From Gammaproteobacteria bacterium (GTDB lineage Bacteria > Pseudomonadota > Gammaproteobacteria > UBA4575): DNA of 64,000 nt. Positions 5,353-33,173 of the stretch are shown here, in pieces. Each line of letters starts with the position of its first letter. The stretch's first letter is position 1. The notes beneath the pieces were generated by a model. It ran no database searches and had not been told where the DNA came from. It was given only the letters and a program-made list of their open reading frames with translations. A program made the translations under genes and the position numbers. The stretch covers positions 594,236 to 658,235 of the forward strand of contig OZ245760.1 in assembly GCA_965227695.1 (NCBI GenBank). Reading direction: 5' to 3'.

Positions 5353-6342
5353 ATGCAGCAGCCATTTAAAGTCTTTCGCATTCATGCCGGTAAAGAATTT
5401 GAGCGCGCCGGTATAGAAACCATGACAATTGATGGTCTGTCGCCTGGCGATGTGGTTATTAAAGTTGAGTATTCCAGTGTCAATTATAAAGATGCACTTG
5501 CAGGCACGGGTACCGGTAAAATTTTGCGCAAATCACCGCTGAATGGGGGAATTGATCTGGCAGGCACCATTGTTTCATCTGAAAGTAAAAAATTCAGTGC
5601 CGGTCAGGAAGTGCTTGTCAATGGTTGCGGGCTCAGTGAAGTACATGATGGAGGCTACAGCCACTATGCAAGAGTCCCGTCTGACTGGGTTATACCTATA
5701 CCTGCAAGGTTGACGACACGCACGTCGATGATTATTGGAACTGCGGGATTCACAGCGGCGCTAGCCATACAGCGGATGCAGGATAATCACCAGTTACCAG
5801 ACAATGGACCCATACTGGTCACGGGTGCCACCGGTGGCGTAGGCAGCTTTTCTGTGCAATTGCTCAGTCAACTGGGTTACCACGTTGTGGCGATGACGCG
5901 TAAGCCACAACAACATGATTTTTTAACTGCACTTGGGGCAAAACAGATCATCTCACCCGGTGAAATTGAGATTGATTCACGTAGCCTGCACAAAGGATGC
6001 TGGGGTGGAGCTATCGATAATCTGGGTGGTGATACGCTGGCATGGCTGACTAAAACGGTGAAGCCATGGGGGAATATTGTGAGTGTCGGAATGGCCGCAG
6101 GTGTAAAAATCGAAACCACTGCAATGCCGTTTATTTTGCGCGGGGTGAGTGTGCTTGGGGTAAGTTCTGCATCATGTCCACAGGTGTTACGCGCAGCTCT
6201 ATGGGGTAAGTTGGGTGATGAATTACTGCCCGGGAACCTGGAAAACATATGCACCGCTGAAGTTGGCCTTGAGACGTTAACTGATGCCTTCAAGAATCTT
6301 TTGCATGGGAATGTGCATGGACGGCAGATTGTGCGTTTATAG
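5353..6342 (+). CDS. YhdH/AcuI-family NADPH-dependent quinone oxidoreductase / acrylyl-CoA reductase (MDR superfamily)
   Basis: 329 aa and aligns along its full length with E. coli YhdH. Shared motifs are VEYSSVNYKDALA, VTGATGGVGS and TTAMPFILRGV. Confidence 0.75.
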   Translation: MQQPFKVFRIHAGKEFERAGIETMTIDGLSPGDVVIKVEYSSVNYKDALAGTGTGKILRKSPLNGGIDLAGTIVSSESKKFSAGQEVLVNGCGLSEVHDGGYSHYARVPSDWVIPIPARLTTRTSMIIGTAGFTAALAIQRMQDNHQLPDNGPILVTGATGGVGSFSVQLLSQLGYHVVAMTRKPQQHDFLTALGAKQIISPGEIEIDSRSLHKGCWGGAIDNLGGDTLAWLTKTVKPWGNIVSVGMAAGVKIETTAMPFILRGVSVLGVSSASCPQVLRAALWGKLGDELLPGNLENICTAEVGLETLTDAFKNLLHGNVHGRQIVRL

Positions 6343-6362
6343 ACTAAATTGGCAGCTACGTA

Positions 6363-7601
6363 CTATCCGTGAGCAAAGAATCGGTATGAGATTAAAATCG
6401 CAGCACTAATTCCGGCAAAATCGGCTAGTAATCCACAAGTCATGGCATATCGTATTTTGGTAATACCTACGGCACCGCAATAGACTGCCAGCACATAAAA
6501 AGTCGTTTCCGTGCTGCCTTGCATGACAGCAGCGACTTTTGCTGCAAAAGAATCCACGCCATGGGTTTGCATGACTTCCAGCATTGCAGCCCGTGCACCG
6601 CTGCCACTGAAAGGCTTCATAATTGCCGTGGGTAATGCTTCAATGAAAGCATTATCGATATTGAAAGTTTGTAATGCGCGACTGACCAGCTCCAGAATCA
6701 CATTAAGTATGCCACTTACTCTAAGTAGTGCGATAGCCAGCAACATGGCAATCAGGTAGGGAATCAGTTTAATTGCAGTGCCAAATCCCTGCTTGGCACC
6801 GACAATAAAAGCTTCATATACATTTATTTTTTTTATCCAGCCGCACACCAGGAATAAGGTAATTGTGGCAAACAGAATAAAGTTGGCAAATAACTGGGCC
6901 TGGTTGCTCATCTGGTCGCTGGGTAACGATAAAAAATACCATGCAAGTACAATCGGGATTGCGCTTAATACAAGCAGATAAGTCAGGACAGTCTTATTGA
7001 ACAGAGGAAGTTTTTGTACGTAGGAAACAGCAAGCAAACCTGTCATGGTTGAGGTAAATGTCGCGAGCAGGATGGGTACAAATACTTCTGTTGGGTGTGC
7101 GGCACCTTGTTGCGCCCGAAATAAAAAAACAGTCACGGGCAATACTGTGACAGAAGAAGTGTTTAATACTAAAAATAGTATTTGTGCGTTGGATAGAACT
7201 GATTTCTGTCTGTTGAGTTTTTGTAAATCATACATCGCTTTTATACCAAAAGGCGTGGCTGCATTATCGAGCCCGAGCGCATTTGCACCCATGTTCATGG
7301 TCATGGAAGTGATGGCCGGGTGATTTCGGGGGACCTCTGGCATGAGCTTGCGGAATAAAGGCGCCAGTATGCGTGCAATAAAATCAGCCAGGCCTGCGCG
7401 TTCGGCAATTTTAAAAAAACCCAGCCAAACCGCCATTAGCCCAATCAGACCCAGCGATATTTCAACGCCGAGTTTTGCAGTCTCGAACAATGCTTCGATG
7501 GCTTGAGTGAAAATCTGCTGATGGCCAAAAACGGATAACTGAATAAAGCAGGCAACAAACGAAAATACAATACAACCGGACCAAAACCAGCCAAGCATCA
7601 C
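6363..7601 (-). CDS. nucleoside-recognition (Gate) domain membrane protein, fused SpmA/SpmB-like
   Basis: 412 aa polytopic membrane protein. The N-terminal segment ...GLIGLMAVWLGFFKIAERAGL...MNMGANALGLDNAATPFG is typical of the nucleoside transporter/FeoB gate family. Confidence 0.55.
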   Translation of the reverse strand: MMLGWFWSGCIVFSFVACFIQLSVFGHQQIFTQAIEALFETAKLGVEISLGLIGLMAVWLGFFKIAERAGLADFIARILAPLFRKLMPEVPRNHPAITSMTMNMGANALGLDNAATPFGIKAMYDLQKLNRQKSVLSNAQILFLVLNTSSVTVLPVTVFLFRAQQGAAHPTEVFVPILLATFTSTMTGLLAVSYVQKLPLFNKTVLTYLLVLSAIPIVLAWYFLSLPSDQMSNQAQLFANFILFATITLFLVCGWIKKINVYEAFIVGAKQGFGTAIKLIPYLIAMLLAIALLRVSGILNVILELVSRALQTFNIDNAFIEALPTAIMKPFSGSGARAAMLEVMQTHGVDSFAAKVAAVMQGSTETTFYVLAVYCGAVGITKIRYAMTCGLLADFAGISAAILISYRFFAHG

Positions 7602-9933: not shown

Positions 9934-10608
9934 GTGCCGGGTGTGCAAAAGCTTAAGGCGGATTGGCTAAGCTTCGATTTGGACGGTACTCTGGTAGACA
10001 GTGTGCCCGACATTACATTTAGTCTTAATCAAATGCTAAATAGGATGGGACTGCCCGCGGTCAACGAAGTATTGGCCCGAAACTGGATAGGTAATGGTGC
10101 TGAATTGTTAATTAAACGTGCGTTACATCATGTGCTGGCGTCCAGTCCTTCACAAGTCAGTCAGGAGCAGGCCAGGGAATATTTTTTTGATGCTTATCAG
10201 GAAAATATTGCTGCCAAGACAGTTGTCTATCCGGGTTGCATGGACTTGCTGGAGCACATTGCAGAAAAATCGATACCGATGGCATGTGTCACTAACAAGC
10301 CAAGGAAATTCACTCAGTCTCTTTTGGAGAGGTTATCAATTACCGGATACTTTAATGTGTTGGTATGTGGCGATGACCTGCCAACAAAAAAGCCGGATCC
10401 GGCGATGATTCTTAAAGCGATAGAAGATATGAACAGTACGCCTCGGGATGGTTACCTGGTAGGGGATTCACATACGGACATGGCTGCTGCCAGGGCTGCG
10501 GGTGCAGGTGCAATTTATGTTTCCTATGGCTATAATCGCGGCGTTTGCGTGGAAAAATATTCACCAATTCGCGTGAATAGCCTAAATGAACTGATTGACT
10601 TAATATAA
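9934..10608 (+). CDS. gph: phosphoglycolate phosphatase (HAD superfamily)
   Basis: 224 aa. Has the HAD motif I FDLDGTLVDS and sits downstream of rpe, the same rpe-gph arrangement as in E. coli. Confidence 0.8.
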   Translation: MPGVQKLKADWLSFDLDGTLVDSVPDITFSLNQMLNRMGLPAVNEVLARNWIGNGAELLIKRALHHVLASSPSQVSQEQAREYFFDAYQENIAAKTVVYPGCMDLLEHIAEKSIPMACVTNKPRKFTQSLLERLSITGYFNVLVCGDDLPTKKPDPAMILKAIEDMNSTPRDGYLVGDSHTDMAAARAAGAGAIYVSYGYNRGVCVEKYSPIRVNSLNELIDLI

Positions 10609-10642
10609 CAGTCATCCGCAATAACTGATCGTAAGGTATTTA

Positions 10643-24124: not shown

Positions 24125-24451
24125 CTAGCGTTTTTTCTTGGCTGTTTTGCGTTTTGCAGTTTTACGCTTGGCAGTTTTCTTTTTCACTGTTTTGCGTTTT
24201 GCAGTTTTACGCTTGGCAGTTTTCTTTTTCACTGTTTTGCGTTTTGCAGTTTTACGCTTGGCAGTTTTCTTTTTCACTGTTTTGCGTTTTGCAGTTTTAC
24301 GCTTGGCAGTTTTCTTTTTCACTGTTTTGCGTTTTGCAGTTTTACGCTTGGCAGGTGCTTTGCGTTTTGCGGTCTTTCTTACTGCTTTGCGCTTGGCAGG
24401 TGCTTTGCGTTTTGCAGTTTTGCGTTTCGCAGTTTTGCGTTTGACGGCCAT
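24125..24451 (-). CDS. histone H1-like / AlgP-like Lys-Ala-rich nucleoid-associated protein
   Basis: 108 aa made almost entirely of K, R, T and A, with the 15-aa unit TAKRKTAKRKTVKKK repeated about 4 times. This resembles bacterial Hc1/AlgP/BpH1-type basic proteins. Confidence 0.65.
   Translation of the reverse strand: MAVKRKTAKRKTAKRKAPAKRKAVRKTAKRKAPAKRKTAKRKTVKKKTAKRKTAKRKTVKKKTAKRKTAKRKTVKKKTAKRKTAKRKTVKKKTAKRKTAKRKTAKKKR
24141..24353. repeat. 45-bp direct tandem repeat, about 4.7 copies (coding repeat inside the H1-like gene)
   Basis: The motif GCAGTTTTCT recurs at 24171, 24216, 24261 and 24306, an exact 45-bp period. The copies are nearly identical and degenerate toward 24353. Confidence 0.9.
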
Positions 24452-24771
24452 TTGTGTTCCTCCAAACTTTAACGTTAACGTTTTTTGACGACGTGAGTAT
24501 AAACAATAGACTAAAAATTACTAGTTTTTTTATATTGTTTTTTTATCTTTTTGTCTGAGTTTTTTATTTTTTTGCAAATATCAAAGAAAAATTTAATTAA
24601 ATATACTGCAAATTGTATTCTTTCAAATTAAAACATGACATGTTCATATTTGAAAAATACTTCGTTTTTTTAACATAACAACAATTCTGATACGTCTGTA
24701 ATTTTTAATGCATTAGACTTAAATTATTGCAAAATGTGGTGCAGCTGTTCACCTGCTATATGAAATAAAGC
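24452..24771. promoter_or_regulatory. 320-bp AT-rich, T-tract-phased (probably curved) intergenic region upstream of the H1-like gene
   Basis: Much more AT-rich than the flanking DNA. Contains repeated T5-7 tracts at roughly helical spacing (tttttttatattgtttttttatctttttgtctgagttttttattttttt). No ORF with coding character. Confidence 0.5.
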
Positions 24772-25317: not shown

Positions 25318-25524
25318 GATATTGGGAAAGCGCACTCCATGAGTACCGTGGCGATGGCCGTTGACCTTGAACCAGAGGTTCAAGTGGGTTCACTGTAAAA
25401 GTCTTAAGGCTCCCTGCTTTTGCAGGTATGCACACTGACTATTAACAAGCAATCCCGAGGTTTGTTAATAGGCTCAAGGGATTTAACGACGTGCTCACGC
25501 ATATCGCAGAGGCGCTGACTCCAA
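25318..25524 (-). ncRNA. ssrS: 6S RNA (SsrS), immediately downstream of zapA; ends approximate
   Basis: The minus-strand transcript contains, in the same order as E. coli 6S, the segments CUCUGCGAUAUG / UCCCUUGAGCC / AGCCUUAAGAC / the hairpin CUUGAACC-ucu-GGUUCAAGG / a 3' end ...GUGCGCUUUCCC. It sits at the conserved zapA-ssrS position. Confidence 0.6.
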
Positions 25525-30621: not shown

Positions 30622-30837
30622 ATGAAAGAAATTAAATCAGTTGGGGAGTATAAAATATACGAAAAGAAATCAGGCAGGTATGCAATCAAGGACGTTAATA
30701 AGAAATTTATAAACGGGGAAGAAAAGACTAAAATACTTGTCAGTGCCGGATTAATTACGGTTCCTGAGCCCAAGCCGGCACCTGTCGAACAAGTTGAAGA
30801 AGACGCCTCGCAAGCAGACGAACAGTCAGATCAGTAA
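30622..30837 (+). CDS. hypothetical small protein with acidic proline-rich C-terminal tail
   Basis: 71 aa. A good SD (AAGGAA) precedes the ATG. A lysine-rich N-terminal half is followed by PEPKPAPVEQVEEDASQADEQSDQ. No family recognised. Confidence 0.4.
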   Translation: MKEIKSVGEYKIYEKKSGRYAIKDVNKKFINGEEKTKILVSAGLITVPEPKPAPVEQVEEDASQADEQSDQ

Positions 30838-31141: not shown

Positions 31142-31190
31142 TCTCCGGCAACGGTGAACAGGAAATATCTGTCAGTATAAATACGATGGT

Positions 31191-31928
31191 TTAAACTAAT
31201 TCTCCACTAATGAAGTTCTGTGCCTGCCTGGATGCCGGGCCGGCAAAGAATTTCTCAGCCGACGACTGCTCTATCATCTCTCCCTTGTCGATAAATACAA
31301 TTTCTTTTGCAAGCCGCCTGGCTTGAGCAAGATCATGTGTCGTCATAATAACTTTCGTGTTGGAACTTTCAAACTGCTGAATAATATTTTCAAAACTAAT
31401 TACAGACGGCGGGTCCAGCGCAACGGTAGGCTCATCCAGTAAAATTACTCTGGGTTTTAACACCCAGGCACGAGCAAGGGAGACTTTTTGTAATTCTCCG
31501 CCGGAAAGACATTTCGTATTGCGCCTGGCGAGATGACTTAAGCCACAGATCTCAAGTGCATGCTGGCAGCGTTGCTGGTGCTCAGACCTGGGAATTCCCG
31601 CGATACGTAAAACAAAACCAATATTATATTCTACTGTTTGATTAAAAAATGTGGGCTGCTGTAATAATAATGTACGCCAGTACTGCCTGACACTGGGTGC
31701 CTGATTTGCCCAGGTAATGCTACCCGAACTGGGTACAATTACTCCGTGTAATAATTTTAGTAGAAGGCTTTTGCCTGAGCCGTTGTGACCAAGAATGATG
31801 CTTGTTCCGGATGAGGTAAGTTGTAAATTAAAATTATTAATTAACGTGTCATTTTTAATACGGTAAGAAACATCAATCATGCAAAGAGATACAGGCCGGT
31901 CCGTAAGTTTAGGTTTGTAAGTATTCAT
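31191..31928 (-). CDS. ABC transporter ATP-binding protein (single NBD, no C-terminal regulatory domain)
   Basis: 245 aa. Has Walker A GHNGSGKS, the signature LSGGELQKVSLARA, Walker B ILLDEPT, and the H-loop TTHD. Confidence 0.8.
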   Translation of the reverse strand: MNTYKPKLTDRPVSLCMIDVSYRIKNDTLINNFNLQLTSSGTSIILGHNGSGKSLLLKLLHGVIVPSSGSITWANQAPSVRQYWRTLLLQQPTFFNQTVEYNIGFVLRIAGIPRSEHQQRCQHALEICGLSHLARRNTKCLSGGELQKVSLARAWVLKPRVILLDEPTVALDPPSVISFENIIQQFESSNTKVIMTTHDLAQARRLAKEIVFIDKGEMIEQSSAEKFFAGPASRQAQNFISGELV

Positions 31929-32620
31929 GCTGAATGCGACTTACGAACGATAATCATCAGGCTTGTAATTGTGAATGATATCATCAATAAAATGATTCCC
32001 AGAGCCATGGCTAACTCCAGGTTGCCCTTGCTGGTTTCAAGAGCGATGGTGGTCGTCATGACGCGAGTGACATGGTTAATATTGCCACCCACAATCAATA
32101 CTGCGCCGACTTCCGCCGAAGCCCTGCCAAAACCGGCCAGCACGGCGGTGAATAAGCTTGTCCTGGCATCTTTTAGTAAGGGTAATATAGTAAAACGGGT
32201 TGGTGCTCCAAGCGCCTTAAACTGAAGTGCATGCTGCTTAAACAAGTCTTCAATCGTTTGTTGTGTCAACGAACTGATTATAGGGGTAATCAGGATGCAT
32301 TGCGCAATGATCATTGCCGTAGATGTAAACAATAGTTCGAGATCGCCTAAAGGCCCTGACCGGGTCAGTAACAAATACAGGGCCAATCCCACTACGACGG
32401 GTGGTAATCCCATGAGGGTATTAAGCACTCCCGTAATAAGATCCTTGCCGCGAAAAAAATAGACACCAAGGATAGTGCCCAGCGGAATGGAAATTAGCGT
32501 CGCAATGATAACGGCACTCAGGCTTACTTTGAGAGATAATAATACGATCTCTAGGAGTTCCGGCTCACATGCAATAATCAGCTGGAAGGCAGTATAGAAA
32601 ATGCCGTCATCATTATTCAT
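31925..32620 (-). CDS. ABC transporter permease, importer-type (BPD_transp_1 / EAA-loop family; TupB/ModB-like size)
   Basis: 231 aa with about 5-6 TM segments. The EAA-like loop ALGAPTRFTILPLLKDARTSLFTAVLAGFGRASAEVGA is present. Overlaps the ATPase gene by 4 bp. Confidence 0.7.
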   Translation of the reverse strand: MNNDDGIFYTAFQLIIACEPELLEIVLLSLKVSLSAVIIATLISIPLGTILGVYFFRGKDLITGVLNTLMGLPPVVVGLALYLLLTRSGPLGDLELLFTSTAMIIAQCILITPIISSLTQQTIEDLFKQHALQFKALGAPTRFTILPLLKDARTSLFTAVLAGFGRASAEVGAVLIVGGNINHVTRVMTTTIALETSKGNLELAMALGIILLMISFTITSLMIIVRKSHSA

Positions 32621-32652
32621 GAGCTAATTTGTAGTTTGTGCTCCTTATTACG

Positions 32653-33099
32653 CTACTGAAGCATCTTTCTTACCGGGACCACAACCTCTACTTGCTGTTG
32701 CTCGCTGAAGGTCAAGGTGAGCGTCACTTGATCCCCATCAGTTAATTGTCTTTGCGGTCTGAAAAGCATTAAATGATAGTCGCCGGGTTCCAGAACAAAT
32801 GTACTGTTAGCCGCAATATGCAAGTGTAGATGAGGTATCATTCTGTATACGCCATCTTTTTCCACGCTACGATGAAACTCAATCGAATTAAAGTCAGGAC
32901 TGGATGCGCTATGCAGAATTATATGCTTATCCGTTGTATTGGTAATGCGCATATAACCCGCCATCGCGGTCGCGTTTGGCGGCGCCTCACGAATCCAGCC
33001 GTCTTCAATTAGAACGGGACTAACGGGAGTATCCTGGCCACAAGCAGTAAAAGTCAGTAGCAGCATCAGGGCGAAACTTAAAAATATGATTTTACGCAT
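32653..33099 (-). CDS. periplasmic copper chaperone PCu(A)C (DUF461) lipoprotein
   Basis: 148 aa. Has a signal peptide with the lipobox LTFTAC, and an H-x-M / M-x-H-x-M copper(I)-site pattern (ITNTTDKH...IEFHRSV...MIPHLHLH...YHLMLF). Confidence 0.65.
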   Translation of the reverse strand: MRKIIFLSFALMLLLTFTACGQDTPVSPVLIEDGWIREAPPNATAMAGYMRITNTTDKHIILHSASSPDFNSIEFHRSVEKDGVYRMIPHLHLHIAANSTFVLEPGDYHLMLFRPQRQLTDGDQVTLTLTFSEQQQVEVVVPVRKMLQ

Positions 33100-33173
33100 A
33101 GATTTATTATTTTGTTTTAACTTAATCTGATATTATACCATTGTTAATCAAAATTTGAGATAAAACGCTGAGT

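Follow-up and report, generated by a model that had tools for sequence, protein, structure and literature searches.

A 64,000-nucleotide stretch of the gammaproteobacterial contig OZ245760.1 (hereafter, the window) carries three minus-strand genes, at 31191–33099, that encode a PCu(A)C copper chaperone (PCuAC) and the permease and ATPase of a small ATP-binding cassette (ABC) importer. We propose that a TupBC-like importer of oxyanions shares its transcript with a canonical Cu(I) chaperone, that the TupA-like substrate-binding protein (SBP) formerly encoded in cis has been lost, and that an SBP is supplied from elsewhere. We put the probability of this reading at roughly 55%. The co-transcription, the class of substrate, and the action of an SBP in trans are predictions from sequence. 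The chaperone probably has not replaced the SBP, because related genomes carry the chaperone and a binding protein together.

Organization of the locus

The PCuAC gene is at 32653–33099, the permease gene at 31925–32620, and the ATPase gene at 31191–31928, all on the minus strand. An earlier reading of the window from its letters alone (the sequence-only reading) had described these genes as tightly linked, and they are: all three open reading frames (ORFs) are present, and the permease stop and the ATPase start overlap by 4 bp (ATGA). The gap between PCuAC and the permease is 32 bp. That reading had also held that a promoter and a terminator belonging to PCuAC would speak against its proposal; our promoter and terminator scans, which gave no more than background-level signal, found neither a promoter-like nor a terminator-like site in this gap. 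The sole promoter-like element upstream of the trio, read by eye, is a candidate extended -10 element, TGGTATAAT, at 33132–33140 on the minus strand, in the 74-bp spacer 5' of PCuAC. A consensus promoter scan, which requires both hexamers, missed it. The three genes are now probably on one transcript.

The only Shine-Dalgarno-like sequence ahead of the permease is AAGGAG at 32641–32646 (minus strand), which is unusually distant at 20 nt from the ATG. An in-frame TAG two codons 5' of this ATG excludes an earlier start.

A permease and ATPase related to TupBC

The permease (231 amino acids) matches PF00528 (BPD_transp_1) across residues 45–219, with 37.6 bits against a cut-off of 26.4, and it matches the full 184-position profile of NF038017 (“ABC_perm1”) with 245.4 bits against a cut-off of 100. 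Its next matches in NCBIfam are, in order, TupB, ModB, and the sulfate permeases CysT/W. Both of the first two fall below their equivalog cut-offs (166.5 bits against 320 for TupB, and 84.9 bits against 182.6 for ModB, TIGR02141). In PDB, we detected related solved structures only for ModB, in 2onk and 3d31, and these best matches are weak (E = 3e-8). The EAA consensus is degenerate (HALQFKALGA), and a strict regular expression for the motif failed to match. A topology of five transmembrane (TM) helices with the N-terminus outside is predicted from hydrophobicity and from where the EAA loop falls.

The ATPase (245 amino acids) has a single nucleotide-binding domain (NBD; PF00005, 93.6 bits) with intact motifs: Walker A (GHNGSGKS), signature (LSGGE), Walker B (VILLDEP), H-loop (THD), and Q-loop. 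It has no C-terminal regulatory domain of the TOBE type, and it matches only positions 6–209 of the 319 in the TupC profile, with 117.6 bits against an equivalog cut-off of 400. Short ATPases without TOBE domains are a trait of this family. A BPD_transp_1 permease and an NBD with the full set of motifs are as expected for a type I importer, and the importer-type permease and single-NBD ATPase of the sequence-only reading both stand.

The pair does not belong to TupABC proper: TupB and TupC are below their cut-offs and TupA was not found in the window. It does not belong to ModABC either, as ModB is below its cut-off and the 245-residue ATPase lacks the C-terminal domain. Because the profile scores, and those of the TupA-like SBPs of relatives (see below), are all beneath the equivalog level, we classify the family as a TupABC-type paralogue rather than TupABC. 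The window's permease and ATPase are thus predicted to be a TupBC-like paralogue of the tungstate/molybdate type, and the importer's substrate is predicted to be an oxyanion. According to the sequence-only reading, two things would count against copper uptake: clustering with oxyanion transporters and a co-regulated binding-protein gene elsewhere. Our profile placement gives the first half of this, with the permease clustering with TupB, ModB, and CysT/W.

To see how the pair is arranged in other organisms, we scanned species-representative genomes, which yielded 80 loci (cited by labels such as L046). Relatives of the permease at 54–63% identity are mainly from Alphaproteobacteria (such as Roseibium), along with other Proteobacteria, and about 55 of 70 have the gene order permease-ATPase-SBP. 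The SBPs are PBP_like_2/SBP_bac_11 proteins whose best family match is TupA (200–238 bits against a cut-off of 400). PCuAC is not nearby in about 65 other members of the permease/ATPase family. Four orphan permease-ATPase pairs (L008, at 6001–7461, and L031, L036, and L064) have neither an SBP nor PCuAC within 5–6 kb, which implies that members of the family can do with a distant SBP gene even when PCuAC is lacking.

The orphan pair in L008 lies near genes for xanthine-dehydrogenase/CoxSML-like molybdoenzymes, and the system in L009 adjoins a YqeC-family gene. These contexts hint at a link between the family and molybdenum or tungsten cofactors. A search of the window and six related loci against Rfam identified 6S RNA only, with no molybdenum cofactor riboswitch or other riboswitch that would indicate the substrate.

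The SBP gene was present in the inferred ancestral locus

The closest relatives form a core clade of nine distinct loci, including the window, in which the other permeases are 69–88% identical to the window's. These are from uncultured Gammaproteobacteria and from contigs of Ca. Thioglobus/SUP05. All nine have the order PCuAC-permease-ATPase with no SBP within 6 kb, so the adjacency that the sequence-only reading relied on is conserved. However, the adjacency within the core clade is weak evidence by itself, because the whole neighborhood is syntenic: pepP-ubiH-ubiF-...-ppiC, then ATPase-permease-PCuAC, then (gcvH)-tpx-dsbH-like-lgt-thyA-folA.

Via distant homologues of PCuAC (44% identity), we reached the sister loci L091/L092, L096/L097 (CP046178.1, 2.65 Mb), and L098 (2.03 Mb). 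These have the same block with one more gene: gcvH is followed by PCuAC, permease, ATPase, and a TupA-like SBP. The flanking genes are thyA-lgt-dsbH-like-acyltransferase-tpx-gcvH before PCuAC and, in L098, ubiF-ubiH-pepP after the SBP. The SBP gene follows the ATPase gene, at the position where the window instead has a 49-bp spacer (31142–31190) between the ATPase stop and a convergent ppiC-like gene, as judged by synteny with L091, L097, and L098.

We also built a neighbor-joining tree from the concatenated permease and ATPase, with 40 bootstraps only. The core clade was recovered in 40/40 replicates and the core clade with the sister lineage in 36/40; a wider PCuAC-linked group was less well supported. 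PCuAC is also linked to the pair in L079, which shares the gcvH neighborhood, and in L046, from a metagenome-assembled genome of Ca. Porisulfidus. The permease of L046 scores 247 bits against NF038017. L046 has a different context (priA / truA-trpFB) and encodes a PCuAC-like lipoprotein, permease, ATPase, and SBP, with all junctions overlapping. Its PCuAC-like protein (5537–6004; PF04314, 39 bits) has lost the first His and the last Met of the copper-binding motif and has a 6-residue deletion. This degenerate chaperone is still translationally coupled to the permease, the ATPase, and the TupA-like SBP.

From these comparisons, we reconstruct the ancestral locus as gcvH followed by PCuAC, permease, ATPase, and a TupA-like SBP, and the core clade (SUP05/Thioglobus-like) as having deleted the SBP gene at this site. 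Since the sister genomes carry PCuAC and the SBP together, the adjacency of PCuAC predates the loss of the SBP and does not reflect a replacement event. We also considered independent origins of the PCuAC linkage, which are unsupported: L079 shares the gcvH neighborhood, the trees fit one origin, and only L046 differs in context.

The spacer between PCuAC and the permease is 23–63 bp in the SBP-less core clade versus 122–230 bp in the SBP-containing lineages and L079. An alignment of the sister-lineage spacers shows little conservation except for a short palindrome. In L091, this is GATCACATTGTGATC, at about 5540–5560 in the 155-bp spacer 5' of the permease, and L097 and L098 have similar dyads. 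The palindrome, which might serve as an operator through which the ABC genes are regulated separately, is missing from the window's 32-bp spacer.

The chaperone appears to be a conventional PCuAC protein

The PCuAC protein (148 amino acids) matches PF04314 over all 109 profile positions (1–109/109), with E = 2.9e-32 and 111.2 bits against a cut-off of 29.4. By inspection, with no dedicated predictor run, it has an N-terminal signal sequence and a lipobox (LTFTAC, followed by G), so it is predicted to be exported to the periplasm and lipid-modified at Cys20. The Cu(I) ligand motif is intact, as His76-x10-Met87-x21-His109-x-Met111 (HRSVEKDGVYRM...YHLM, from residue 76). The ligands are in register with those in the solved structures 9yah and 2k6w (TTHA1943), and the protein also aligns to 1x9l (DR1885). 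The description in the sequence-only reading of a PCu(A)C lipoprotein with the H/M motif is therefore well founded.

The ligand motif is kept in all nine core-clade proteins (the window's included) and in L079, and inspection of the alignment shows the four copper ligands in L091, L097, and L098 as well. The alignment shows no clade-specific remodelling of PCuAC relative to the SBP-containing sisters. Membrane anchoring of the protein is inconsistent, because the lipid-modified Cys is followed by different residues (G, N, S, R, T, or D) and is itself missing in L079 and L098.

The SUP05/Thioglobus orthologue in L001 (5513–5974) ends in a His-rich tail, HTEDHSHHHH, which is missing from the window's protein and from the other members of the clade. 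The tail may be an extra metal-binding site.

Outside the ABC context, the closest homologues of this PCuAC are in overlapping Sco/SenC-PCuAC pairs, and our list of homologues includes just one PCuAC per long core-clade contig. We noticed no sco gene when reading the window's ORFs by eye, although no search with a Sco query was made. Judging from these homologues and the intact ligands, PCuAC most likely keeps its usual job, which is the transfer of Cu(I) to Sco or to cuproenzyme sites.

The importer is under purifying selection and its periplasmic loops are conserved

Within the core clade, the median pN of the permease is 0.154, versus 0.159 for the neighboring tpx; synonymous sites are saturated. 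Where dS is measurable, omega for the permease is 0.03–0.10. The purifying selection and the intact motifs indicate that the three ORFs are real genes and that the permease-ATPase pair is probably functional. The same evidence rules out a pseudogenised remnant of ABC genes.

No segments of the permease are better conserved between the SBP-less core clade and the SBP-linked lineages than its two predicted periplasmic loops, whose identities are 0.68 (loop 1) and 0.90 (loop 2) versus 0.56 overall. Periplasmic loop 1 has one clade-specific fixed change and loop 2 has none. The permease diverges mostly in the cytoplasmic loop and TM5, and clade-specific fixed changes are found in TM3, TM5, and the cytoplasmic loop. 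On this pattern, we reject periplasmic remodelling after the loss of the SBP.

Where is the binding protein?

The sequence-only reading had noted that no binding-protein gene is adjacent, and this was confirmed across the entire 64-kb window: tblastn with three TupA-like SBPs as queries gave nothing better than E = 0.87 and no SBP remnant, and no other binding-protein gene is apparent among the window's ORFs as read.

In the mechanism that we propose, the importer would assemble as (permease)2(ATPase)2. The core clade would have deleted the SBP gene and shortened the PCuAC-permease spacer from about 120–230 to 23–63 bp. The importer would have stayed functional, with the oxyanion delivered by a TupA-like or related SBP that is encoded elsewhere in the genome, while PCuAC would continue to pass Cu(I) to Sco or cuproenzyme sites.

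Several observations weigh against this proposal. No SBP was found for the host genome, in a search that covered the 64-kb window only. Also, a search with the sister-lineage SBP placed no protein from a long core-clade contig among its 120 best homologues, which reach down to 58% identity; but the family's alphaproteobacterial SBPs are only 51–57% identical to that query, so a diverged orphan would escape this listing. Furthermore, the linkage of PCuAC to the ABC genes persists through deep divergence (44% identity for PCuAC and 58% for the permease), it is kept in L046, where the genomic surroundings differ and the four genes overlap as an operon, and the PCuAC-permease spacer became shorter in just the clade that lost the SBP. 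Each of these last three points hints that the genes are functionally tied and not just co-located. The sequence-only reading had offered, as its alternative, a TupBC pair that is merely adjacent to PCuAC. The evidence fits a Tup/Mod-type pair better than it fits copper uptake, but the linkage has probably been conserved for too long to be called “merely adjacent”.

Alternative explanations

If the tie is functional, then PCuAC could be an accessory of the TupABC-like transporter rather than a substitute for its SBP, with the SBP encoded in cis in the sisters and acting in trans here. We consider this possible but rather doubtful. Such an accessory might coordinate the supply of copper with that of molybdenum or tungsten for respiratory metalloenzymes, or it might handle Cu-thiometallates in sulfidic habitats. 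The breadth of the linkage (the core clade, the L091/L097/L098 lineage, L079, and L046) fits this idea, as do the overlaps among all four genes of L046 in an unrelated context (priA / truA-trpFB), the compression of the core-clade spacer to 23–63 bp, and the lack of a detected terminator between PCuAC and the permease. However, all of the PCuAC-linked pairs may stem from a single ancestral juxtaposition (36/40 for the core clade with the sisters, and weaker for the wider group), and, with most of the loci in a single conserved block of synteny, the neighborhood may simply have been inherited. The L046 protein, despite its overlapping genes, is missing two of the four copper ligands, and about 65 other members of the family do without a nearby PCuAC. 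In the sisters, the 122–230 bp spacer with its palindrome suggests separate regulation, and we found no biochemical precedent in the literature.

The proposal of the sequence-only reading was that PCuAC substitutes for the binding protein in the uptake of copper or another soft metal. In these terms, the SBP was lost and PCuAC became the periplasmic donor for the permease-ATPase pair. One role for such a system would be to provide cytoplasmic copper for CcoI and the assembly of cbb3 oxidase, in the manner of the importer CcoA, which belongs to the major facilitator superfamily (MFS). The SBP-less pair does adjoin PCuAC in every core-clade locus; the importer is under purifying selection without an SBP in cis; there is no close SBP orthologue on core-clade contigs among the 120 best homologues (at least 58% identity); the copper ligands are invariant across the clade, with an added His-rich tail in the SUP05 protein; and the spacer tightened where the SBP was lost. 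Nevertheless, the proposal is weakened by the coexistence of PCuAC and the SBP in the ancestral arrangement, by the placement of the permease in an oxyanion family, by docking loops that are unchanged relative to SBP-dependent relatives, and by the orphan pairs that exist without any PCuAC. PCuAC itself was not remodelled relative to the SBP-containing sisters and is inconsistently anchored (with a variable residue after the Cys, and no Cys in L079 or L098). Also, we know of no type I importer that is served by a beta-sandwich protein. We therefore think that substitution is improbable. The fuller form of the idea, in which a TupBC-derived pair is fed by the co-transcribed PCuAC instead of a Venus-flytrap SBP and imports Cu(I) or Cu-thiomolybdate/thiotungstate via the chaperone's copper site, strikes us as a long shot too.

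It is very improbable that the pair needs no periplasmic partner and is a low-affinity oxyanion importer, or has another ATP-driven role, with PCuAC unrelated: orphan pairs recur in the family, the ATPase has no regulatory domain, and binding-protein-independent mutants of type I importers are known, but SBP-independent type I importers are rare in nature, and the strong conservation of the periplasmic loops suggests that a docking surface has been kept.

Implications

Among the members of the core clade are sulfur oxidisers of the SUP05/Thioglobus type, which are numerous in vent and symbiotic habitats and in oxygen-minimum zones and need both copper and molybdenum or tungsten for their respiratory and sulfur enzymes. 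The persistence of a chaperone gene next to a tungstate/molybdate-type importer, over such deep divergence, suggests that the supply of copper and that of molybdenum or tungsten are coupled in a way not recognised before. If, as we favor, an SBP is supplied in trans, then the locus illustrates ordinary operon erosion. If the importer naturally works without a classical SBP, this would change the understanding of ABC importers. And if PCuAC were to feed the importer, a beta-sandwich metallochaperone would for the first time be seen to serve a type I ABC importer, and the bacteria concerned would be among the most abundant sulfur oxidisers of oxygen-minimum zones.

Other features of the window

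On the plus strand at 30622–30837, a ubiF-like gene and a ppiC-like gene flank a conserved 71-residue ORF, which has an acidic C-terminus and no match in Pfam. L001 and L006 have this ORF in the same position; in L098, the position next to ubiF is taken by the SBP gene. A full-length 6S/SsrS RNA (73.7 bits, by Rfam) is at 25329–25515 on the minus strand; in L098, 6S RNA is at 10456–10638, downstream of zapA. At 24142–24354 there is a perfect 45-bp tandem repeat (4.7 copies, 100% matches), which lies within a longer degenerate 15-bp array that extends to 24442 and yields a spurious repetitive 116-residue ORF (24138–24488).

Comparison with known systems

The sole precedent that we found for pairing a Cu(I) chaperone lipoprotein with an ABC transporter is NosDFY-NosL. 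NosFY is of a different ABC type, not a BPD_transp_1 importer, and requires NosD; NosL has a different fold. None of those genes is at the window's locus. In that system, the copper-chaperone lipoprotein cooperates with the ABC transporter in the periplasm during assembly of CuZ (PMC7558416). Our search of the literature found no paper that links PCuAC with a Tup-type system or with any other importer-type ABC system, and the long-conserved PCuAC-TupBC(A) linkage appears to be undescribed so far.

The MFS protein CcoA is a known route for copper import into the cytoplasm ahead of the assembly of cbb3 oxidase (PMC7558416). This is the role that the trio would have if PCuAC were the donor, but CcoA is from an unrelated protein family and no result here shows copper transport.

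The characterized PCuAC chaperones (TTHA1943, DR1885, and PccA/PcuC) resemble the window's protein in the full-length match to PF04314, the aligned H-x10-M-x21-H-x-M ligands, and the Sco/SenC linkage of the nearest relatives outside the ABC context. Unlike them, the window's protein is predicted to be lipid-anchored, and its gene is directly upstream of genes for an ABC importer.

ModABC (ModBC-A in 2onk and 3d31) has the same superfamily and architecture as the window's permease. However, the similarity is weak (E = 3e-8), the permease reaches just 84.9 of the 182.6 bits for the ModB equivalog, and the window's ATPase has no TOBE domain.

The closest comparison is to TupABC, of the Eubacterium acidaminophilum type (NF041772–NF041774). 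Here too there are differences: the parts score at about half of the equivalog cut-offs or less (166/320 for the permease, 118/400 for the ATPase, and 200–238/400 for the relatives' SBPs); the SBP-linked relatives are ordered permease-ATPase-SBP; the window's ATPase has no C-terminal domain, covering profile positions 6–209 of 319; and the window's locus has a PCuAC gene upstream and no SBP gene. Nevertheless, TupB is the best named match for the permease and TupA is the best for the relatives' SBPs, and both systems are type I importers of the oxyanion type with a small, homodimer-forming permease.

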